Virus record (IMG/VR): IMGVR_UViG_3300033146_003848
Location: 32,001-96,000 of that record
Direction: 5' to 3' (one strand)
Origin: a virus
DNA: 64,000 bases
The stretch's first letter is position 1. Every line of letters starts with the position of its first letter. Below, piece by piece: positions 31,554 through 47,276 of this stretch. The notes beneath the pieces are model-generated. The model had not been told where the DNA came from. It was given only the letters and a program-made list of their open reading frames with translations, and ran no database searches. Made by a program: the position numbers and the translations under genes.

Positions 31554-32876
31554 ATGAATAAAATTTATGTTTTAGATACGAATGTGATCCTTACGGATCC
31601 AAAATCAATATTTTCATTTGAAGATAATGAAGTGATTATTCCATTGGTGGTAATTGAAGAGATAGATCATTTTAAAAAGAAAATGGATCCCACAGGCTTT
31701 GCCGCAAGAAAGTTTTCTCGAATAATTGATGATTTAAGGAGTCGAGGAGATCTAATTACTGGAGTTGAAACTAGAGAAGGTGGAACTATTAGAATTGTAT
31801 CTCCAAAAAAAGATGATAGCGTTGAATTAGATCTTACAATCAACGATAATATTATAATTTTCACAGCATTATCCGTGAGAAATGCAGATAAGAAAGTTAT
31901 TCTTGTAAGTAGAGACATTAATGTTAGAATAAAGGCGGATTTCTTGAAACTGCAAGCCGAAACTTATACTACCGATTCAGTCAACCTAACTTCTTTACCT
32001 AAAGGATATGAAGAGGTTTCTGTTGCAGGTAGTTTAATTGATGATTTATTCATAAATAAATCATTACCTAAAGATGCATTATTGAACGTTGAAATATTCC
32101 CAAATGCATATTATCATTTAAAAAATGAAGATGGTGGAAATCAACAAGCGATTGTTAGATATGATCCGTTTCTTGAAAAGTTTACTCCATTGAAGACGAA
32201 TAAAAATATTTCTAGTATAAGTCCTAGGAATGCGGCTCAAAAGATTGCATTGGAGTTAATATTAGATGATAGAGTTAAGTTGGTGAGTTTACTAGGAAAG
32301 GCAGGAACGGGAAAGACTCTATTAGCCATTGCCGCAGGACTTCAGATGGTCGCAGAAGATGGTAAATATTCTAAAATGTCTGTTTCTAAACCCGTTATTC
32401 CTATGGGAAAAGATATTGGATATCTTCCCGGTAGTATGGAAGAGAAAATGCGACCTTGGATACAACCTATTATGGATAATTTAGAGGTAGTTCTATATGG
32501 TCATGGATTCAATTATACTCATTCTAAACTGGGAAAAATGAATAGTGTGGAAGATTTCGTTGAAAGTGGTCTTATAGAAGTTGAAGCCTTAACTTATATT
32601 AGAGGTAGAAGTATTCCTAATCAATTTATTATAGTCGATGAAGTTCAAAATCTTAGTTCTGCTGAAATTAAAACTATTCTAACTAGAGTTGGAGAGGGAA
32701 CAAAGATTATTCTAACTGGAGATCCATATCAAGTAGATAATGTTTATCTCGATGAGAATTCAAATGCTCTAGTATATATCATGGAAAAATTTAAAGATCA
32801 GCCAATAGCCGGACATATCATTCTCGAGAAAGGTGAGAGAAGTGAACTCGCCGAAATAGCCTCTAATATCCTATAA
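31554..32876 (+). CDS. phoH: PIN-PhoH protein (PhoH2/YlaK-like)
   Basis: N-terminal PIN YVLDTNV...EEID...ND...SRD; GKAGTGKT, IGYLPG, YIRGRS, DEVQN, GDPYQVD, RSELA. Confidence 0.93.
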   Translation: MNKIYVLDTNVILTDPKSIFSFEDNEVIIPLVVIEEIDHFKKKMDPTGFAARKFSRIIDDLRSRGDLITGVETREGGTIRIVSPKKDDSVELDLTINDNIIIFTALSVRNADKKVILVSRDINVRIKADFLKLQAETYTTDSVNLTSLPKGYEEVSVAGSLIDDLFINKSLPKDALLNVEIFPNAYYHLKNEDGGNQQAIVRYDPFLEKFTPLKTNKNISSISPRNAAQKIALELILDDRVKLVSLLGKAGTGKTLLAIAAGLQMVAEDGKYSKMSVSKPVIPMGKDIGYLPGSMEEKMRPWIQPIMDNLEVVLYGHGFNYTHSKLGKMNSVEDFVESGLIEVEALTYIRGRSIPNQFIIVDEVQNLSSAEIKTILTRVGEGTKIILTGDPYQVDNVYLDENSNALVYIMEKFKDQPIAGHIILEKGERSELAEIASNIL

Positions 32877-40112: not shown

Positions 40113-41138
40113 ATGAAGTTAGAAAGAATAAAAATAGTTGAAACTGAATATGGAAAGACCGGTAGATCTAAGAATTATAATTTCAACTTTAATAAAATCG
40201 ATGGATCATTTATGCGTTGGGGTCAAACTAAAGATGATGATCCTGAGTTTGGATATCCTGAGATTTTAGATTTAGAAATATCTGAGATTTGTAATATGGG
40301 ATGTAAGTTTTGCTACAAATCAAATGTTGAATATTCTGGTAGGAATATGACTTTGGACACATTTAAAATCATTGTTTCTAAGATGCCCAAGACAATTACT
40401 CAAATTGCATTCGGAATTGGAGATATAGATACAAATCCAGATTTAGCAGACATCATTAGATATAGTAGAAATCACGGTATAATTCCAAATTTAACGATTA
40501 ATGGAAGTGGATTGACTGATTGGTGGGCAGACTTTTTCTCAGAATGGTTAGGAGCAATAGCCGTTAGTATTTACGATAAGAATTTATCATTTAATGCTAT
40601 TGAAAAATTAACGTCTAGAGGGATGAAGCAGGTAAATGTTCATTTTATGATATCAAAAGAAACAAAGAGTCAAGCGATTGCAATGATTGATCATATTAAA
40701 AGTGATCCTCGTTTGAAGAAAATGAATGCTTTAGTGTTTTTATCATTAAAGCCTAAAGGTAGAGGAGAAACGTTCCATGCTCTTTCTCAAGATGAATTTA
40801 ATGAAATAGTAAACTATGCTATTCGTCAGGAAATATCAATGGGATTTGATTCATGTAGTGCTCCGAAATATTTAGAATGTATTAAGAATGATTTGGATTT
40901 TAAAGAAAAGGAACAATTAGTGGAGCCTTGTGAGAGTGGACTATTCTCTTCATATATCAATGTTGCTGGGGAATTTTTCCCTTGTAGTTTCGCAGAGAAT
41001 CATTCGTCATGGACTACAGGAATTGATGTGATTCATTGTGATACTTTTTTGCAAGATGTTTGGTCGCATCCTAGAGTTATAGAATGGAAAAAGAATTTAC
41101 TTAAAAACTGTAGAAATTGTCCGATTTATAATGTTTGA
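40113..41138 (+). CDS. Radical SAM enzyme with C-terminal SPASM/twitch domain
   Basis: CNMGCKFC (CxxxCxxC); FDSCSA, PCESGLFSSYINVAGEFFPCSF...CRNCP. Confidence 0.9.
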   Translation: MKLERIKIVETEYGKTGRSKNYNFNFNKIDGSFMRWGQTKDDDPEFGYPEILDLEISEICNMGCKFCYKSNVEYSGRNMTLDTFKIIVSKMPKTITQIAFGIGDIDTNPDLADIIRYSRNHGIIPNLTINGSGLTDWWADFFSEWLGAIAVSIYDKNLSFNAIEKLTSRGMKQVNVHFMISKETKSQAIAMIDHIKSDPRLKKMNALVFLSLKPKGRGETFHALSQDEFNEIVNYAIRQEISMGFDSCSAPKYLECIKNDLDFKEKEQLVEPCESGLFSSYINVAGEFFPCSFAENHSSWTTGIDVIHCDTFLQDVWSHPRVIEWKKNLLKNCRNCPIYNV

Positions 41139-41146
41139 GGTATATA

Positions 41147-41821
41147 ATGAAAATTAGACATGGATTCGTAAGTAATAGTAGCAGTTCAAGTTTTATTGTT
41201 GCTATGAACGCTGATATTAATGATGATGTTGACCGTATGATGAGTCAATTAGGGGATGTTAGTGGTAAATATTCAAGTGCGTATTTTGATAATGAACAGA
41301 TAGCATCTCGAATTTGTTTAGATAAAGGTCAAATAGTTAGTCGAAAAATGTTTGTTCAATTATTGAAGAATAGTTATTATAATTTAATTGATGAATTCGA
41401 ATTAGAACGCACATTATCTGATGTATTTTTGGAGTATTTTCTTTATGATGATGAGGAGGAGGATGAAATTATTATTGAAGATTTGAGCGATAGAGAAGTT
41501 GCGTATTATTGGAGTCGAATATTACATAAGTATGATTTATATGTAGAGTGGGTTGAGGAGATGCGAGTGAATCGTAGACCTGATTTTTCAGAAATCAAAA
41601 AACAAATGAGCCCAAAGGCTACACTTGAAGAACTATCTCAAGAGTATGATTATCAAACTGAAGCGTGGGCAAATCGAGAATATGATTTATTATTATCAAA
41701 AATGAAGAATTATCAGCGATTGTATTTATTTGAATATGATGATTATTCTGAGTTTGAGGAGTATTTACAATATGGTAATATTTTTAGGAATTTACCGCAT
41801 ATAGTGTTGGGGAATCATTAA
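41147..41821 (+). CDS. Acidic protein with N-terminal MKIRHGFVSNSSSSSFI motif
   Basis: GAGG RBS then ATG 41147, directly after the radical SAM gene. Confidence 0.8.
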   Translation: MKIRHGFVSNSSSSSFIVAMNADINDDVDRMMSQLGDVSGKYSSAYFDNEQIASRICLDKGQIVSRKMFVQLLKNSYYNLIDEFELERTLSDVFLEYFLYDDEEEDEIIIEDLSDREVAYYWSRILHKYDLYVEWVEEMRVNRRPDFSEIKKQMSPKATLEELSQEYDYQTEAWANREYDLLLSKMKNYQRLYLFEYDDYSEFEEYLQYGNIFRNLPHIVLGNH

Positions 41822-42144
41822 TGAGTTTACGAAAGATTTTGAGTAGATGGTTTAAAAAAGACTTCATTAGTCTAAAATGGGCATTTATTGACTTTAGATT
41901 GTGGGTTTTTGAATTGGAAGATAACAGTTCTGATCCTATTTGGATCGAAGAGTGCGATGTGGATATTAGATTTAAAAGTCATTATAAGGCTGTACCTTGG
42001 TATAAATGTATGTTTACATTTCGAATTCCATCACGAATTAGAAGTTATATATCTCATATAATATCGATTTTAGTGGGATTAATAGTGGGAATTGTTATAT
42101 CTGAAAATTATGAATTTTTAATGGAGGTATTTAATGTTAGTTGA
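41821..42144 (+). CDS. Hypothetical protein with C-terminal TM
   Basis: Coupled ORF. Confidence 0.55.
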   Translation: MSLRKILSRWFKKDFISLKWAFIDFRLWVFELEDNSSDPIWIEECDVDIRFKSHYKAVPWYKCMFTFRIPSRIRSYISHIISILVGLIVGIVISENYEFLMEVFNVS

Positions 42145-42778
42145 TACTATTTTGAATCGTGTTAGTGTAGTTGAGGTGTTGGATTTAATTGGAGAGTATT
42201 ATTATGATGGTGACTATGAGTACTCGAATCGACAAGGATTCTTGAAAACAATTCAAGAATTATGTCAAACAACATATTTGAAATCGAACGATGGGTTGAT
42301 ATTAACTATCAATCATTATGTGGATGAATATGATGGTGATGAATTCGAACAAGTGTCAGCAATAAAGAAAGATGAATCATTCTCATGGTCATTATCTTTA
42401 ACACCGTGGGCAGAATGGTTGGGATTAGAAGTGTCTAAGGAGACATTGAATAAATACACTGAAGGTGAAATTATGGCTCACATTCTTTGGGAAATGACAT
42501 TTTATGGATTTGATAGTAAGTCCGTTGAATCTCAAAGAGCAGAAATTTTTCAATTAAGTGAGGATGCGAAGAATGATCCGTCTAGTTACGTTTCAATGGA
42601 TGAATTATTTGCTGATTATGATATTGATTCGAATTTAACTTTGTCTGAATCGTTCGCAAAAGAGAGTGCTGACATCCTCGATGATAAAGATCGAACTATT
42701 GCTTTTTTCCAAAAAGCGGGGACACATAACAATGATGGAACATTAACTGAAAGAAATTCGTCAGGAGAAACCGAATGA
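42134..42778 (+). CDS. DUF6557-like acidic protein
   Basis: SLTPWAEWLGLEV...EIMAHILWEMTFYGF. Confidence 0.55.
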   Translation: MLVDTILNRVSVVEVLDLIGEYYYDGDYEYSNRQGFLKTIQELCQTTYLKSNDGLILTINHYVDEYDGDEFEQVSAIKKDESFSWSLSLTPWAEWLGLEVSKETLNKYTEGEIMAHILWEMTFYGFDSKSVESQRAEIFQLSEDAKNDPSSYVSMDELFADYDIDSNLTLSESFAKESADILDDKDRTIAFFQKAGTHNNDGTLTERNSSGETE

Positions 42779-42984
42779 ATTGGAAGTATAGTCATATAAC
42801 TCCATCTGGAGGGCATTTATATGAGCATATTAAAGAAGATCGAATAGTTGTGATTTATTCAAATCATTGTATATTTTATATGAATAGACATTTGAATATT
42901 CCATCAGCAACTGAGTTGTATTCTAGAATGCTACCGTTTATGTATAGTAAAAGTATTCGACGAAATGTCACGTTACGGAGATAA
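42775..42984 (+). CDS. Hypothetical protein
   Basis: AGGAG RBS, coupled. Confidence 0.55.
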   Translation: MNWKYSHITPSGGHLYEHIKEDRIVVIYSNHCIFYMNRHLNIPSATELYSRMLPFMYSKSIRRNVTLRR

Positions 42985-42985
42985 T

Positions 42986-43405
42986 ATGAAGTTTAGATGT
43001 GGATTTGTAAGTAATAGTAGTAGTTCAAGTTTCATTGCGGTTTACGCCAAAGTGGAATTCAAGAAAGCAGAAGATGTTTTGAAAAAATTAAATCTAGAAT
43101 CGATGACGAAAGATGAATTCATTGCTAAGTGGAAATATGAATTTGATGATGGGTTTGAAAATGATTGGGCAGGAGTTCAGTTAGATGTCCCATCAATTGA
43201 TGAATTGAATGATAAATCTAGATATGTGTATTTTGAATCATGCGACGAACACAATGACTCTGATTTTTGGGATGGAGGTGAGTATGATTATGACATTGGA
43301 CTGGACGATTTCAGCAGTCGAACTAAACAAATATTCAAACAGGTTAGCAACGAAAATGGGTTTACTGATATTAGTAAGGGCTTTGGAGCAGGACGAAATG
43401 GATAA
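42986..43405 (+). CDS. Second acidic protein with N-terminal MKFRCGFVSNSSSSSFI motif
   Basis: GGAG RBS then ATG 42986. Confidence 0.8.
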   Translation: MKFRCGFVSNSSSSSFIAVYAKVEFKKAEDVLKKLNLESMTKDEFIAKWKYEFDDGFENDWAGVQLDVPSIDELNDKSRYVYFESCDEHNDSDFWDGGEYDYDIGLDDFSSRTKQIFKQVSNENGFTDISKGFGAGRNG

Positions 43406-43436: not shown

Positions 43437-43465
43437 TTGACTTAATTGTTATTATATGTTATATT
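43437..43465 (+). promoter_or_regulatory. sigma70-type promoter
   Basis: TTGACT-N17-TATATT with TG. Confidence 0.7.
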
Positions 43466-43951: not shown

Positions 43952-45379
43952 ATGATTCAAGTGAAAGGTAAACATACGAACGCTACAATATTCACTGATG
44001 ATGTGGAGAAAAGTTGTTTGTTGCAAATCCAAACATTCTGTAATCATCCAGTGTTTGATAAATTAAACATAGCAATGATGCCCGATACTCATGCAGGAAA
44101 AGGAGTTCCAATTGGAACTGTGGTAGCATTATCAGATAAGATAATTCCATCAGTAATTGGAGTTGATATTGCATGTGGAATGTTGAGTTTTTGTTTGGAA
44201 GTTGGAGATGAAAAATTTAAAGACTTTGATTGGATTAAATTTGATAAATTACTGAGAAGAAAATTGCCAACAGGAATGCATATTCATTCTCAAGGTATCA
44301 ATTTCAAACAGGAATTCCCGTGGTATGAAGCACAAAAACAATTTGATGCATTTAGAGATGAGTATATAAAACGATATGATAAAGAAATGCCGTATGTGGA
44401 ATATAATTACGAATGGTTCTTGAATCTTTGCACTAAAATTGGAAGTAATTCTCAAAATGTTACTCGTTCAATTGGAACTTTAGGTGGAGGAAATCACTTC
44501 TTAGAGATAGGAAGAAGTAAGGAAACTGGGAAATATTGGCTTACAATTCATTCGGGAAGTAGGAACTTTGGATTGAAAGTTGCAACATATCATCAAAAAA
44601 AGGCAGAAGATGTCTTGAAAGAAAAGAGAGTTCAATTGGAGAAAAATATTAAAGAAACAATATTGAATGACTCCACGAATTTACATAAGCGAAAAGAGTT
44701 ATTGCATGATGTAAAAGTGAATGCTAATTTAGATTTTGACTTAAATATTAAAGGACTTGAATGGCTTGAAGATGAAGATGCTGTTGAATATATGACAGAT
44801 ATGATTTTCACTCAAATGTATGCGGGATTCAATAGACAAACTATAGAGTATATTGCATTAGATTGTCTTCAAGAAAGTTTAGACATTCAATTTATTTATA
44901 ATGAGAGTATTGAGTGTATTCATAACTATATTGATCCTCATGATTGGTTCATTAGAAAAGGAGCCATACGAGCATATCAAGGAGAGAAAAGTGTTATTCC
45001 GTTTAATATGAGAGATGGACTTTTAATCTGCACTGGTAAAAACAATAGTGATTGGAACTATTCTGCTCCGCATGGTGCAGGACGAGTGTTGAGTCGTAGT
45101 GTGGCAAAACAAACAATTAAATTGGAAGATTTTCAAGAGACAATGGAAGGCATTCATACTACATCCGTCACAGCATCAACATTAGATGAAAGTCCATTTG
45201 TATATAAAGATTCGGAATTGATTGAAATATTAATTGAAGATACGTGTAATGTTTTAGAGCATGTTATACCAATATATAATATGAAAAATGCTTCTGAAAT
45301 ATATATGAAACAAAAAAAAGAGCGAGATGATGAGGAGAAGAAGAATTATTCTAATACAATGGGCTGGGAAATTAAATGA
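43952..45379 (+). CDS. rtcB: RtcB family RNA 3'-phosphate/5'-OH ligase
   Basis: MPDTHAGKG, GVDIACGM, GTLGGGNHFLE, IHSGSR, CIHNY, RKGAI, SAPHGAGR, DESPFVYK. Confidence 0.95.
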   Translation: MIQVKGKHTNATIFTDDVEKSCLLQIQTFCNHPVFDKLNIAMMPDTHAGKGVPIGTVVALSDKIIPSVIGVDIACGMLSFCLEVGDEKFKDFDWIKFDKLLRRKLPTGMHIHSQGINFKQEFPWYEAQKQFDAFRDEYIKRYDKEMPYVEYNYEWFLNLCTKIGSNSQNVTRSIGTLGGGNHFLEIGRSKETGKYWLTIHSGSRNFGLKVATYHQKKAEDVLKEKRVQLEKNIKETILNDSTNLHKRKELLHDVKVNANLDFDLNIKGLEWLEDEDAVEYMTDMIFTQMYAGFNRQTIEYIALDCLQESLDIQFIYNESIECIHNYIDPHDWFIRKGAIRAYQGEKSVIPFNMRDGLLICTGKNNSDWNYSAPHGAGRVLSRSVAKQTIKLEDFQETMEGIHTTSVTASTLDESPFVYKDSELIEILIEDTCNVLEHVIPIYNMKNASEIYMKQKKERDDEEKKNYSNTMGWEIK

Positions 45380-45474
45380 AAATGATTCGTTAGGTGTTCG
45401 AGAGATATATGCTGAAACGTTTGGAGAAGGGATTCGTTGGAAGAAAGATGAGCGAGAATCAATTATGAAATATA

Positions 45475-45855
45475 TTGGAGAAAAGTATGAAATATCTTGA
45501 TCATATAATTTCACATAGAAAGTGTATTATTGCATTAGAGAAGCATTTGACAGGGAAAAATACTTGGGCAATTAAGTTGCATGATTTAGATAAAGTGATA
45601 TTAACTAGATTGGGAGTTTCAAAGAATCGAACTCATAAAATTCATAGATTTTTCTCTAGGCATCATGCGGAATCATTTTGGATTAAAAAGAATGTGTTTG
45701 AGATGTTTTTGGATTGGGAGTGTGCTAGATATACTAAACCGGATAAACCATTAACTGCGATTGAAACTGCTCAGAAATATTATCCACAACATCTATCTCA
45801 GATATTAGATTTTCAAGATAAGTATGCTGTGAAATTAGTTGATTTTAAATTTTAA
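45475..45855 (+). CDS. Small HD-like domain protein
   Basis: H...H...LHDLDK, RHH, DWECARYTKPDKP. Confidence 0.55.
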   Translation: MEKSMKYLDHIISHRKCIIALEKHLTGKNTWAIKLHDLDKVILTRLGVSKNRTHKIHRFFSRHHAESFWIKKNVFEMFLDWECARYTKPDKPLTAIETAQKYYPQHLSQILDFQDKYAVKLVDFKF

Positions 45856-46154
45856 TGATGATATGAATAGAATGAAGAATAAAATGACATTTATTAAACG
45901 AATGATATATCAAGAGAAAGATGATATATTAAAAGTCATCGATGGTCAGTAATAGAGAAATTGAAGTTCTATTTTGGAGACAAAATCGAAGTGTGACTCA
46001 CTTATTCAAAACAGGATATAAATTTTACTTTACTGGACGAGATGAAGATAGAGAATATATGGAAACGATTCTTATTGCCTATATCAAAATTTAAAGCAAT
46101 GCTTTCAACTAAGTAGTCCACAAAACATTCGAATATCATCATCTTGAATATTAA

Positions 46155-46183
46155 TTGACAAAAACAAAAAAATATGATATATT
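46155..46183 (+). promoter_or_regulatory. sigma70-type promoter
   Basis: TTGACA-N17-TATATT with TG. Confidence 0.75.
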
Positions 46184-46220
46184 ATATTTGTAGTTTAATA
46201 ATAATCAATGTGAGAAAATT

Positions 46221-47276
46221 ATGATACCAAGTGAAATTTACAACAAATTAAATGAACATGTTATTGGTCAAGAACATGCTAAGAAAGTTTTATCGGTAGC
46301 AGTATATAATCACTATAAGAGAATTGACACAGAAGGACTCCAAGTTGATATTCAAAAGAGTAATGTGATGTTATTGGGTCCTACAGGAAGTGGGAAGACA
46401 TATTTGATTCAGACTCTTGCTAAAATGTTGGATGTACCATTAGCAATAGCCGATGCATCTTCATTAACACAAGCAGGATATGTTGGAGCAGATACTGAAA
46501 CTATTCTTAGAACGTTGGTAATCAATGCTGATGGAGATATAGTGAAAGCCCAACGAGGAATTATTTATATTGATGAGATTGATAAATTAGCCAAACGAGA
46601 TTTAGGGACCAGTTTGACTGCAAATCCATCATCAGAAGGAGTTCAACAAGCACTGTTGAAAATAGTTGAGGGAACCATTTGTGAAGTCCCAACTACAGGA
46701 CAACGGAAGAATCCTCACGGACAAACATTCCCAATTGACACAACTAATATTCTATTCATTGTTGGTGGAGCATTCATTGGAATGGAAGAGATGATTTCTG
46801 AAAATGGAAGTACATCTACAGTAGGATTCGGAGAGAATGTTGTGAAGATGAAAAGTGAAGATGTGAAAATATCAAAAACGTTAACTAGTCAAGATATCAT
46901 TCATTATGGTATGATACCTGAATTCGTTGGACGATTCCCAATTCACGCTGTTTTAAATGAATTGAGTGATGATGACATGAGAAGAATATTAGTTGAACCT
47001 AAGAATTCCATCATCAAACAATATCAAGAATTATTTAGAATTGATGGTGTCACTTTAACCTTCGATGATGAAAGTTTAGATAGTATAATTCAAAAAACAA
47101 AAGATGAAAAATTAGGAGCAAGAGGTCTTCGACGAACATTGGAGAGTGTAATGTTAGATATAATGTTTAATGCTCCGACTATGGAAAATTTAGATGGAAT
47201 TATTATTAATAAGAATGTTATCGAAAACGTAGAAGATCCTATTTATAAGTTTGTTGATGTTCAATGTGCATCTTAA
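46221..47276 (+). CDS. clpX: ClpX ATPase lacking the N-terminal zinc-binding domain
   Basis: VIGQEHAKK, GPTGSGKT, AGYVG, IDEIDK, GVQQALLK, VGF loop, PEFVGR, GARGLR. Confidence 0.93.
   Translation: MIPSEIYNKLNEHVIGQEHAKKVLSVAVYNHYKRIDTEGLQVDIQKSNVMLLGPTGSGKTYLIQTLAKMLDVPLAIADASSLTQAGYVGADTETILRTLVINADGDIVKAQRGIIYIDEIDKLAKRDLGTSLTANPSSEGVQQALLKIVEGTICEVPTTGQRKNPHGQTFPIDTTNILFIVGGAFIGMEEMISENGSTSTVGFGENVVKMKSEDVKISKTLTSQDIIHYGMIPEFVGRFPIHAVLNELSDDDMRRILVEPKNSIIKQYQELFRIDGVTLTFDDESLDSIIQKTKDEKLGARGLRRTLESVMLDIMFNAPTMENLDGIIINKNVIENVEDPIYKFVDVQCAS

Follow-up and report, generated by a model that had tools for sequence, protein, structure and literature searches.

A radical SAM enzyme and N-terminally tagged acidic proteins form a putative protein-modification module in phages and in bacterial cassettes with Avs2-like NTPases

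Results

A radical SAM gene and two tagged acidic proteins

We describe a phage locus in which a radical S-adenosylmethionine (SAM) enzyme is encoded beside two acidic proteins that share an invariant, serine-rich N-terminal tag of 16 residues. It lies in the IMG/VR virus record IMGVR_UViG_3300033146_003848, 146 kb in length; the window analysed here is the stretch of 64,000 nucleotides from base 32001 to base 96000 of that record (about 30% G+C; estimated 65% complete), and positions are those of the window. The enzyme and its tagged proteins, called clients below, constitute a real, two-component module that is largely undescribed.

The enzyme gene occupies positions 40113–41138 on the plus strand and codes for 341 residues. 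It is directly followed on the same strand by the gene of client protein A (41147–41821; 224 residues, isoelectric point 4.5), which starts with the tag MKIRHGFVSNSSSSSFIV (41147–41200). Client protein B (42986–43405, plus strand; 139 residues, isoelectric point 4.5) starts with the tag MKFRCGFVSNSSSSSFIA (42986–43039). A Shine-Dalgarno-like GAGG or GGAG precedes the ATG of both clients by 6–8 nucleotides. An initial annotation, made from the DNA alone, had placed here two acidic open reading frames (ORFs) that begin with M-K-x-R-x-GFVSNSSSSSF and whose tag DNA differs synonymously; both ORFs are present, both are acidic, and the two copies differ at TTC/TTT, AGC/AGT and TTT/TTC. A degenerate back-translation of GFVSNSSSSSF matches the window exactly twice, against no match in 100 shuffled sequences, and finds just two matches across the entire 146-kb record.

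The enzyme belongs to phrog_7293 (E = 5.5e-92). Another family, phrog_7397, matches A at its N- and C-terminus (E = 3e-9) and B in the tag only (E = 0.003). Both families are annotated as being of unknown function, in keeping with the earlier description of the system as undescribed; that description goes too far in that the two PHROGs exist and that a radical SAM protein, Avap1, has been published beside the STAND NTPase Avs2 (PMC11564622). A full-text literature search with the tag motif strings returned nothing relevant.

The enzyme and its homologues

Pfam Radical_SAM (PF04055) matches the enzyme well above its cut-off (39.2 versus 29.5 bits, E = 1e-9). The CxxxCxxC motif (C60, C64 and C67) is kept in an alignment of 17 homologues, where it is preceded by a conserved N-terminal extension of about 50 residues. 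In the same alignment, the C-terminal domain has just four invariant cysteines: C248, C273, C291 and C336.

The enzyme had also been assigned to the SPASM group. While its radical SAM nature stands, a full SPASM domain does not: the Pfam SPASM model remains below the cut-off (18.2 versus 21.5 bits) and the cysteine set is incomplete, with neither the seven-cysteine SPASM set nor the CxxCx5Cx3C block in a protein that ends in ...CRNCPIYNV. Because of the sub-threshold score and the missing block, we regard the window enzyme as probably twitch-like rather than SPASM. The CxxCx5Cx3C-type motif is absent from 119 of 144 homologues and present in the bacterial ones and a minority of the phage ones.

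Against NCBIfam, the enzyme gives only sub-threshold matches to many SPASM maturases, including a weak one to HxsC4 (E = 9e-4). Models for the anaerobic sulfatase-maturating enzyme (anSME), FxsB and XyeB do not occur among the NCBIfam matches listed. The nearest solved relatives are SkfB and BtrN only (E ~ 1e-4), and a weak profile match covers the twitch region of BtrN (E = 4.6e-4).

Two homologues have unusual reading frames. In IMGVR_UViG_3300033145_003233 (547,943 bp; locus L016:2641-3690), a single in-frame TAG falls exactly at a nearly invariant tryptophan of the family (F-x-R-W-G-K), which could be stop-codon recoding or a sequencing error. On the contig of locus L024 (G310:C1:10021-12078), the enzyme gene matches as two pieces about 860 bp apart, the first containing TGA and TAA; this points to an intron or a homing-endonuclease insertion, or else to a gene that is broken.

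Conservation of the tag

The consensus of the client tags is M-K-φ-[RK]-x-[G/D/R]-F-V-[S/T]-N-S-S-S-x-S-F-φ-φ, with the universal core FV[ST]NSSSxSF. In 318 distinct tagged proteins of at least 70 residues, taken from viral loci and the window, residues M1, K2, R4, F7, V8, S9, S11, S12, S15 and F16 are each conserved at 95–100%, and the apparent invariance of G6 and N10 is partly by construction, as both were fixed by the regular expression of the search. Natural variants replace R4 by K and G6 by D or R; in intact proteobacterial cassettes, described below, G6 is replaced by D (MKIKLDFVSNSSSTSF). Of the 318 proteins, 90% are acidic.

Across all loci we collected 504 distinct tag DNAs. At the invariant positions they use all six serine codons and both arginine codon boxes, and their pairwise identity is 84% for amino acids versus 48% for third codon positions. 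Judged from this codon usage and these identities, selection acts on the tag peptide and not on its DNA, as had been proposed from the two copies in the window.

With a profile restricted to residues 1–40 of 100 diverse members, we retrieved 25,652 cluster representatives (E ≤ 0.001) out of 1.84 billion. In nearly all matches listed, the alignment begins at residue 1. The top-scoring matches (P0243-P0251) are polypeptides with two tags, the second having its own Met-Lys; they look like neighbouring tagged genes that gene calling or read-through of a stop codon has fused.

Linkage of enzyme and tag in viral genomes

The association was examined in IMG/VR from both sides. Scanning with an alignment of eight enzymes alone produced 156 relatives (a single-sequence scan had given just three distant loci), and 73 of the best 80 carry 1–10 tagged ORFs within 10 kb. 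At these 73 loci all tagged ORFs are on the strand of the enzyme, often in tandem arrays, and the tag always comes directly after Met1. Scanning with the tag alone, an enzyme homologue was found within 6 kb in 18 of 23 confirmed loci; the locus counts include several near-identical contigs. The suggested tie between the tag and this radical SAM subfamily is thereby borne out.

For loci where only one partner had been seen, whole contigs were inspected. The enzyme lay elsewhere in two of three large tag-only contigs, and 2–6 tags lay elsewhere in three of five enzyme-only contigs. Tagged proteins in number without the enzyme, which the initial annotation had named as evidence against the pairing, were not encountered among the contigs checked whole.

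The type of tag also varies with the type of enzyme. Position 9 is serine in 357 of 359 tags adjoining twitch-type enzymes and threonine in 21 of 35 tags adjoining SPASM-type enzymes. When same-strand ORFs of 81 loci were clustered, only the enzyme and the tagged proteins recurred, with no third conserved component; a protease, an exporter or a gene for a PqqD-like recognition element (RRE) was likewise not conserved alongside, the clustering involving no search aimed at the RRE. Altogether, we hold with high confidence that, at the level of genomes, enzyme and tagged clients are an established pair.

Client bodies and their predicted structures

Behind the tag, the clients diverge strongly. 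With the first 20 residues removed, BLAST sorts 488 proteins into 134 clusters, of which 100 have a single member, so that the early idea of a portable N-terminal tag on variable acidic bodies extends well beyond the window. Client lengths range from about 90 to 270 residues. Class A, to which protein A belongs (44 homologues), has the C-terminus ..YSDxDG..EHGxIFxxLPHxxISxH; class B, that of protein B (18 homologues), ends in ..NDEGDxxF..DYDYD..FGAGRNG. Tagged proteins of bacteria form a third class with a conserved tryptophan at the end. The A and B families, trimmed of the first 20 residues, align in hhalign with a probability below 1%, and no pair among the trimmed alignments of the A, B and bacterial classes is significant. 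Nothing in Pfam, NCBIfam or PADLOC matches the tagged proteins.

We predicted the structures of A and B with AlphaFold2, with a predicted local distance difference test (pLDDT) score of 70 and 80, respectively. Both models follow the same plan: a strand at the N-terminus leads into a variable helical insert, after which come a penultimate strand ending in an acidic loop and a C-terminal strand. The first 12 residues or so have no secondary structure and residues 1–9 have a pLDDT below 50; a strand starts at about S13, making tag residues 13–20 the first strand of a small α/β core. The two proteins had been called unrelated beyond the tag, which is correct for their sequences and incorrect for their models, where the α/β core is common.

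In these models, the C-terminal third of the tag is structural and the first 12 residues, the most conserved, are a free overhang. The low pLDDT of residues 1–9 together with their highest conservation is typical of a segment shaped by a partner.

Fold searches with model B gave ferredoxin- or ACT-like matches only (Z ~ 4), no Foldseek match in the PDB at E ≤ 0.001 and nothing useful in the viral structure library BFVD. The helical insert of model A has HAD-cap-like matches at Z 5–6.4, inside the stated noise range of the tool. In the ESM Atlas, the structural neighbours of A are only viral hypothetical clusters, with template modelling (TM) scores of 0.69–0.72.

Relatives in cultured phages

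The enzyme is 41–44% identical to proteins in 172 cultured phage records. Among them are Pseudotevenvirus RB43, Citrobacter phage Miller and Cronobacter phage GAP161, as well as many Klebsiella and Enterobacter myophages. Phage Miller encodes the enzyme (CPTMiller_00165) and, about 20 kb away on one strand, the tagged proteins CPTMiller_00117, similar to class B, and CPTMiller_00122, of class A; all three are annotated as radical SAM protein or hypothetical protein only. Between the two tagged genes lies CPTMiller_00120 (L213:2902-5121), a protein of 739 residues with a von Willebrand factor A domain.

Neither the locus (megablast) nor client B (tblastn) had a match in cultured phages; low-complexity masking and divergence are probably responsible for these misses. 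The literature found on RB43-type phages and radical SAM consists of genome descriptions only. In the Flagellimonas marina CGMCC 1.15774 assembly, sequence NZ_JBHSCL010000010.1 (178,077 bp; loci L121 and L208) encodes the enzyme and two tagged proteins that closely resemble, by eye, CPTMiller_00117 and CPTMiller_00122. The sequence probably represents the genome of a T4-like enterobacterial phage within the assembly of a marine flavobacterium.

Bacterial cassettes with an Avs2-like STAND NTPase

A scan of one bacterial genome per species returned 93 stretches with the exact tag pattern, many of which are probably phage contigs binned into metagenome-assembled genomes. On chromosomes and plasmids of several phyla, a tagged protein of 131–138 residues and a full-SPASM homologue of the enzyme are part of a compact cassette. 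It occurs, among others, in Lachnospiraceae, Veillonella, Verrucomicrobiota, Sulfuricurvum, Terriglobales, Agrobacterium (plasmid pAt), Proteus mirabilis and an Enterobacteriaceae strain. Within the cassette, a large protein is encoded first, then a protein of about 125–140 residues, then the tagged protein and last the radical SAM enzyme. Proteus and the Enterobacteriaceae strain carry these four genes as an insertion between housekeeping genes. Among complete E. coli genomes, a megablast search did not find the enterobacterial cassette.

The large protein matches PADLOC models of Avs2 over the NTPase region (E from 1e-14 to 5e-29). It has a trypsin-like or a SMEK/restriction endonuclease-like N-terminal effector and a STAND length of 845–984 residues; in some loci it adjoins an Avs1a-type metallo-β-lactamase gene. 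Each cassette has the tag pattern once: the tagged protein bears it, at its N-terminus only, and the STAND protein lacks it. In Firmicutes (L112:1064-2059, L175:2476-3384 and five further loci), the radical SAM gene is followed by a protein of about 300–330 residues with a C-terminal domain like the integron cassette protein PF21648, absent from the proteobacterial four-gene form.

The Avs2 operon of Klebsiella pneumoniae contains two accessory genes, Avap1 and Avap2 (Bechon et al. 2024, PMC11564622). The radical SAM protein is Avap1, which matches viperin models weakly by profile but is not a viperin, has no NTP pocket and is needed against some phages; Avap2 is small, has a link to DUF6375 at the level of HHpred, binds Avs2 constitutively and could not be deleted (PMC11564622). 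The roles of both were stated to be unknown (PMC11564622). Like Avap1 and Avap2, the bacterial cassettes place a radical SAM protein and a small protein beside an Avs2-type STAND NTPase (PMC11564622). They differ from the Klebsiella operon, which has three genes and a long Mrr-type Avs2, in having four genes and shorter STAND proteins, and the phage locus of the window differs from both accessory genes in that it has no STAND gene. The cassettes thus appear to share the operon logic of Avap1 and Avap2, a likeness drawn from the published description and short of proven equivalence. With hmmscan, PF19902 (DUF6375) matched neither the tagged proteins nor their neighbour of about 125 residues, and it was not found in the 300 Gammaproteobacteria and 400 Bacillota genomes sampled.

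Surroundings of the module in the window

Three genes on the plus strand separate clients A and B: an ORF of 107 residues with a hydrophobic C-terminal stretch (41821–42144), which has no family match in Pfam or PHROG searches; an acidic DUF6557 protein of 214 residues (42134–42778; PF20194, E = 2e-28); and a basic ORF of 69 residues with no assigned function (42775–42984). The 107-residue ORF and the DUF6557 protein are not conserved with the module elsewhere, according to the clustering of the 81 loci.

The block was said to end at a promoter at 43437. A sigma-70-like match is indeed there (43437–43465), though such matches are not in excess in the window (24 versus 24.8 expected in shuffled sequence). 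Flanking genes encode a sigma-70-like factor, a DEAD/Rad3-type helicase, RtcB and a ClpX-like ATPase. The last two, an RtcB RNA ligase (E = 2e-60) and an AAA+ ATPase, are located just downstream of the block, at 43952–47276. The phage RtcB suggests the repair of host-cleaved tRNA, another conflict function in the same region.

Discussion

A proposed modification of the tag

We propose that the locus is a two-component module in which a dedicated radical SAM enzyme modifies tagged client proteins, a reading that we favour by a modest measure. With similar reserve, we take the tag as the substrate of the enzyme to be the most economical explanation, because its core is conserved and rich in hydroxyl groups, its beginning is modelled as a free overhang, and its type co-varies with the type of enzyme. 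It also agrees with the habit of SPASM/twitch enzymes: to our knowledge, those that have been characterised act on the peptide they bind.

The flexible overhang of about 12 residues would dock into the enzyme and may contact the conserved N-terminal extension there. Next, the enzyme would abstract a hydrogen from a residue of the tag, most likely within S9–S12 or at F7/S9. Our leading guess for the product, by analogy with anSME and with dehydrogenases of the BtrN type, is a serine oxidised to a formylglycine-type aldehyde. The second guess is an F-x-S cyclophane or an ether cross-link; F7-V8-S/T9 fits the aromatic-x-x pattern of the cyclophane motifs in triceptides of the FxsB, XyeB and HxsB type. 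What a given client binds would depend on its variable body.

Elements of this scheme are found in known systems. The enzymes anSME/AtsB and BtrN are SPASM/twitch proteins that oxidise C-OH to carbonyl, including that of serine in a folded protein client. The enzyme described here resembles BtrN in that the BtrN twitch domain is among its sole solved relatives; it departs from the pairing of anSME and sulfatase, as the tag lacks a C/S-x-P/A-x-R motif and Pfam detects no sulfatase domain in the clients. Ribosomally synthesised and post-translationally modified peptides (RiPPs), such as the prochlorosins, have one maturase for many precursors with a common leader. Here, too, one enzyme is encoded with many putative substrates made of a conserved N-terminus and a hypervariable remainder; unlike RiPPs, the clients are folded proteins of 90–270 residues and the candidate reaction site, rich in serine, is inside the conserved part. 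The internal proteins of phage T4 have an N-terminal capsid-targeting sequence, which targets them for packaging and which the prohead protease cleaves off. Like our clients, they are hypervariable phage proteins that begin with a short conserved tag and are used in conflict with the host, although the T4 tag has no radical SAM partner and no sequence likeness to the one reported here.

A precedent in phage-host conflict is the HXS defence system, where the radical SAM enzymes HxsB and HxsC mature the protein effector HxsA (PMC13128918). In both cases a radical SAM enzyme matures a whole protein through a short serine-containing motif, the maturation being in ours a proposal (PMC13128918). HxsA differs by its internal His-Xaa-Ser repeats, signal peptide and periplasmic role, as opposed to a single N-terminal tag and cytoplasmic acidic bodies, and the enzyme subfamily is different.

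Other explanations

Several other explanations share parts of the evidence. The serious rival, to which we nevertheless give a clearly smaller chance, is that the tag has a docking role only: the body would recruit a separate target, for instance a protein of host or phage, a nucleic acid or a small molecule, and the enzyme would modify this target and leave the tag unchanged. In favour of such an adaptor, one enzyme serves many diversified bodies, and small accessories in operons of this kind can be binders, as shown by the constitutive binding of Avap2 to Avs2 (PMC11564622). The data on the linkage of enzyme and tag fit it equally well. However, the invariant hydroxyl-rich SNSSS and the co-variation at position 9 look more like a reaction site than a handle, and in known SPASM/twitch enzymes the bound peptide is itself the target.

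An alternative that we find improbable starts from the common core of the two models, with its acidic D-x-D/E-G loop after the penultimate strand. The tagged proteins could then all be one divergent enzyme or ligand-binding fold, with the tag loop and first strand as its site and a ligand made by the radical SAM enzyme. The final residue is conserved within each class (H, G or W) and the Atlas neighbours of A, other viral hypothetical proteins, are structurally near, both of which agree with a single fold. Yet no residue outside the tag is conserved across classes, hhalign finds nothing, residues 1–9 are unstructured in the models, and the fold searches return only generic ferredoxin-like or HAD-cap-like matches of Z 4–6. 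Up to ten divergent paralogues per phage would also be unusual for one enzyme activity.

The position of the bacterial versions next to STAND NTPases, and a composition that to our judgement looks amyloid-prone, bring to mind a motif for β-strand addition or amyloid-like NLR/STAND signalling, with the radical SAM enzyme only regulating it. We consider this very unlikely: known amyloid motifs of NLRs are matched pairs on sensor and effector, but there is a single tag pattern per bacterial cassette and none on the STAND protein. In addition, the phage loci have no STAND partner and the dedicated radical SAM enzyme is left unexplained. Finally, R-x-G-F bears a superficial likeness to the glycyl radical motif R-V-x-G-[FWY], whose activases are of the PflA/NrdG type. 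The enzyme is of the SPASM/twitch type instead, and we rejected a radical on G6 as next to impossible, since G6 is naturally replaced by D in intact proteobacterial cassettes and by D or R in some metagenomic and viral tags.

Returning to the tag as substrate, a number of observations weigh against it. Owing to the near-identical contigs, the locus counts are not fully independent. One contig of 250 kb (88% complete) has the tag and no enzyme match, and another of 205 kb (100% complete) has the enzyme and no tag of the exact pattern. In both models tag residues S13–V18 form a strand of the β-sheet core, so that part of the conservation is structural. The genomic linkage is equally compatible with a docking peptide, and counter-defence by the phage arrays is plausible from their context alone.

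A module with a likely role in phage-host conflict

The module likely works in phage-host conflict, because its bacterial form is found in an Avs2 context, its acidic phage clients are multiplied and diversified, and it is positioned among early-type genes. The phage arrays would probably be early-expressed effectors of counter-defence or host takeover. In the broadest version of this scheme, which we put forward tentatively and with more doubt than belief, the enzyme would install a reactive or cross-linked group on the FV[ST]NSSSxSF core of thousands of phage effectors, to be used against Avs2-type STAND immunity that itself uses the pair.

If the tag is modified, it would represent a new post-translational modification of dark-matter proteins of phages and bacteria, in a family that comprises more than 25,000 sequence clusters. 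The proposal, if true, would give a role to the radical SAM gene in 172 records of cultured T4-like phages, including therapy candidates for Klebsiella and Enterobacter. It would also explain the accessory gene Avap1 and offers a testable hypothesis for the radical SAM proteins of Avs2 operons. That one module is common to defence operons and to diversified phage arrays suggests mimicry or counter-defence. Altogether, it looks like an uncharacterised protein-modification system used on both sides of the conflict between phages and their hosts.

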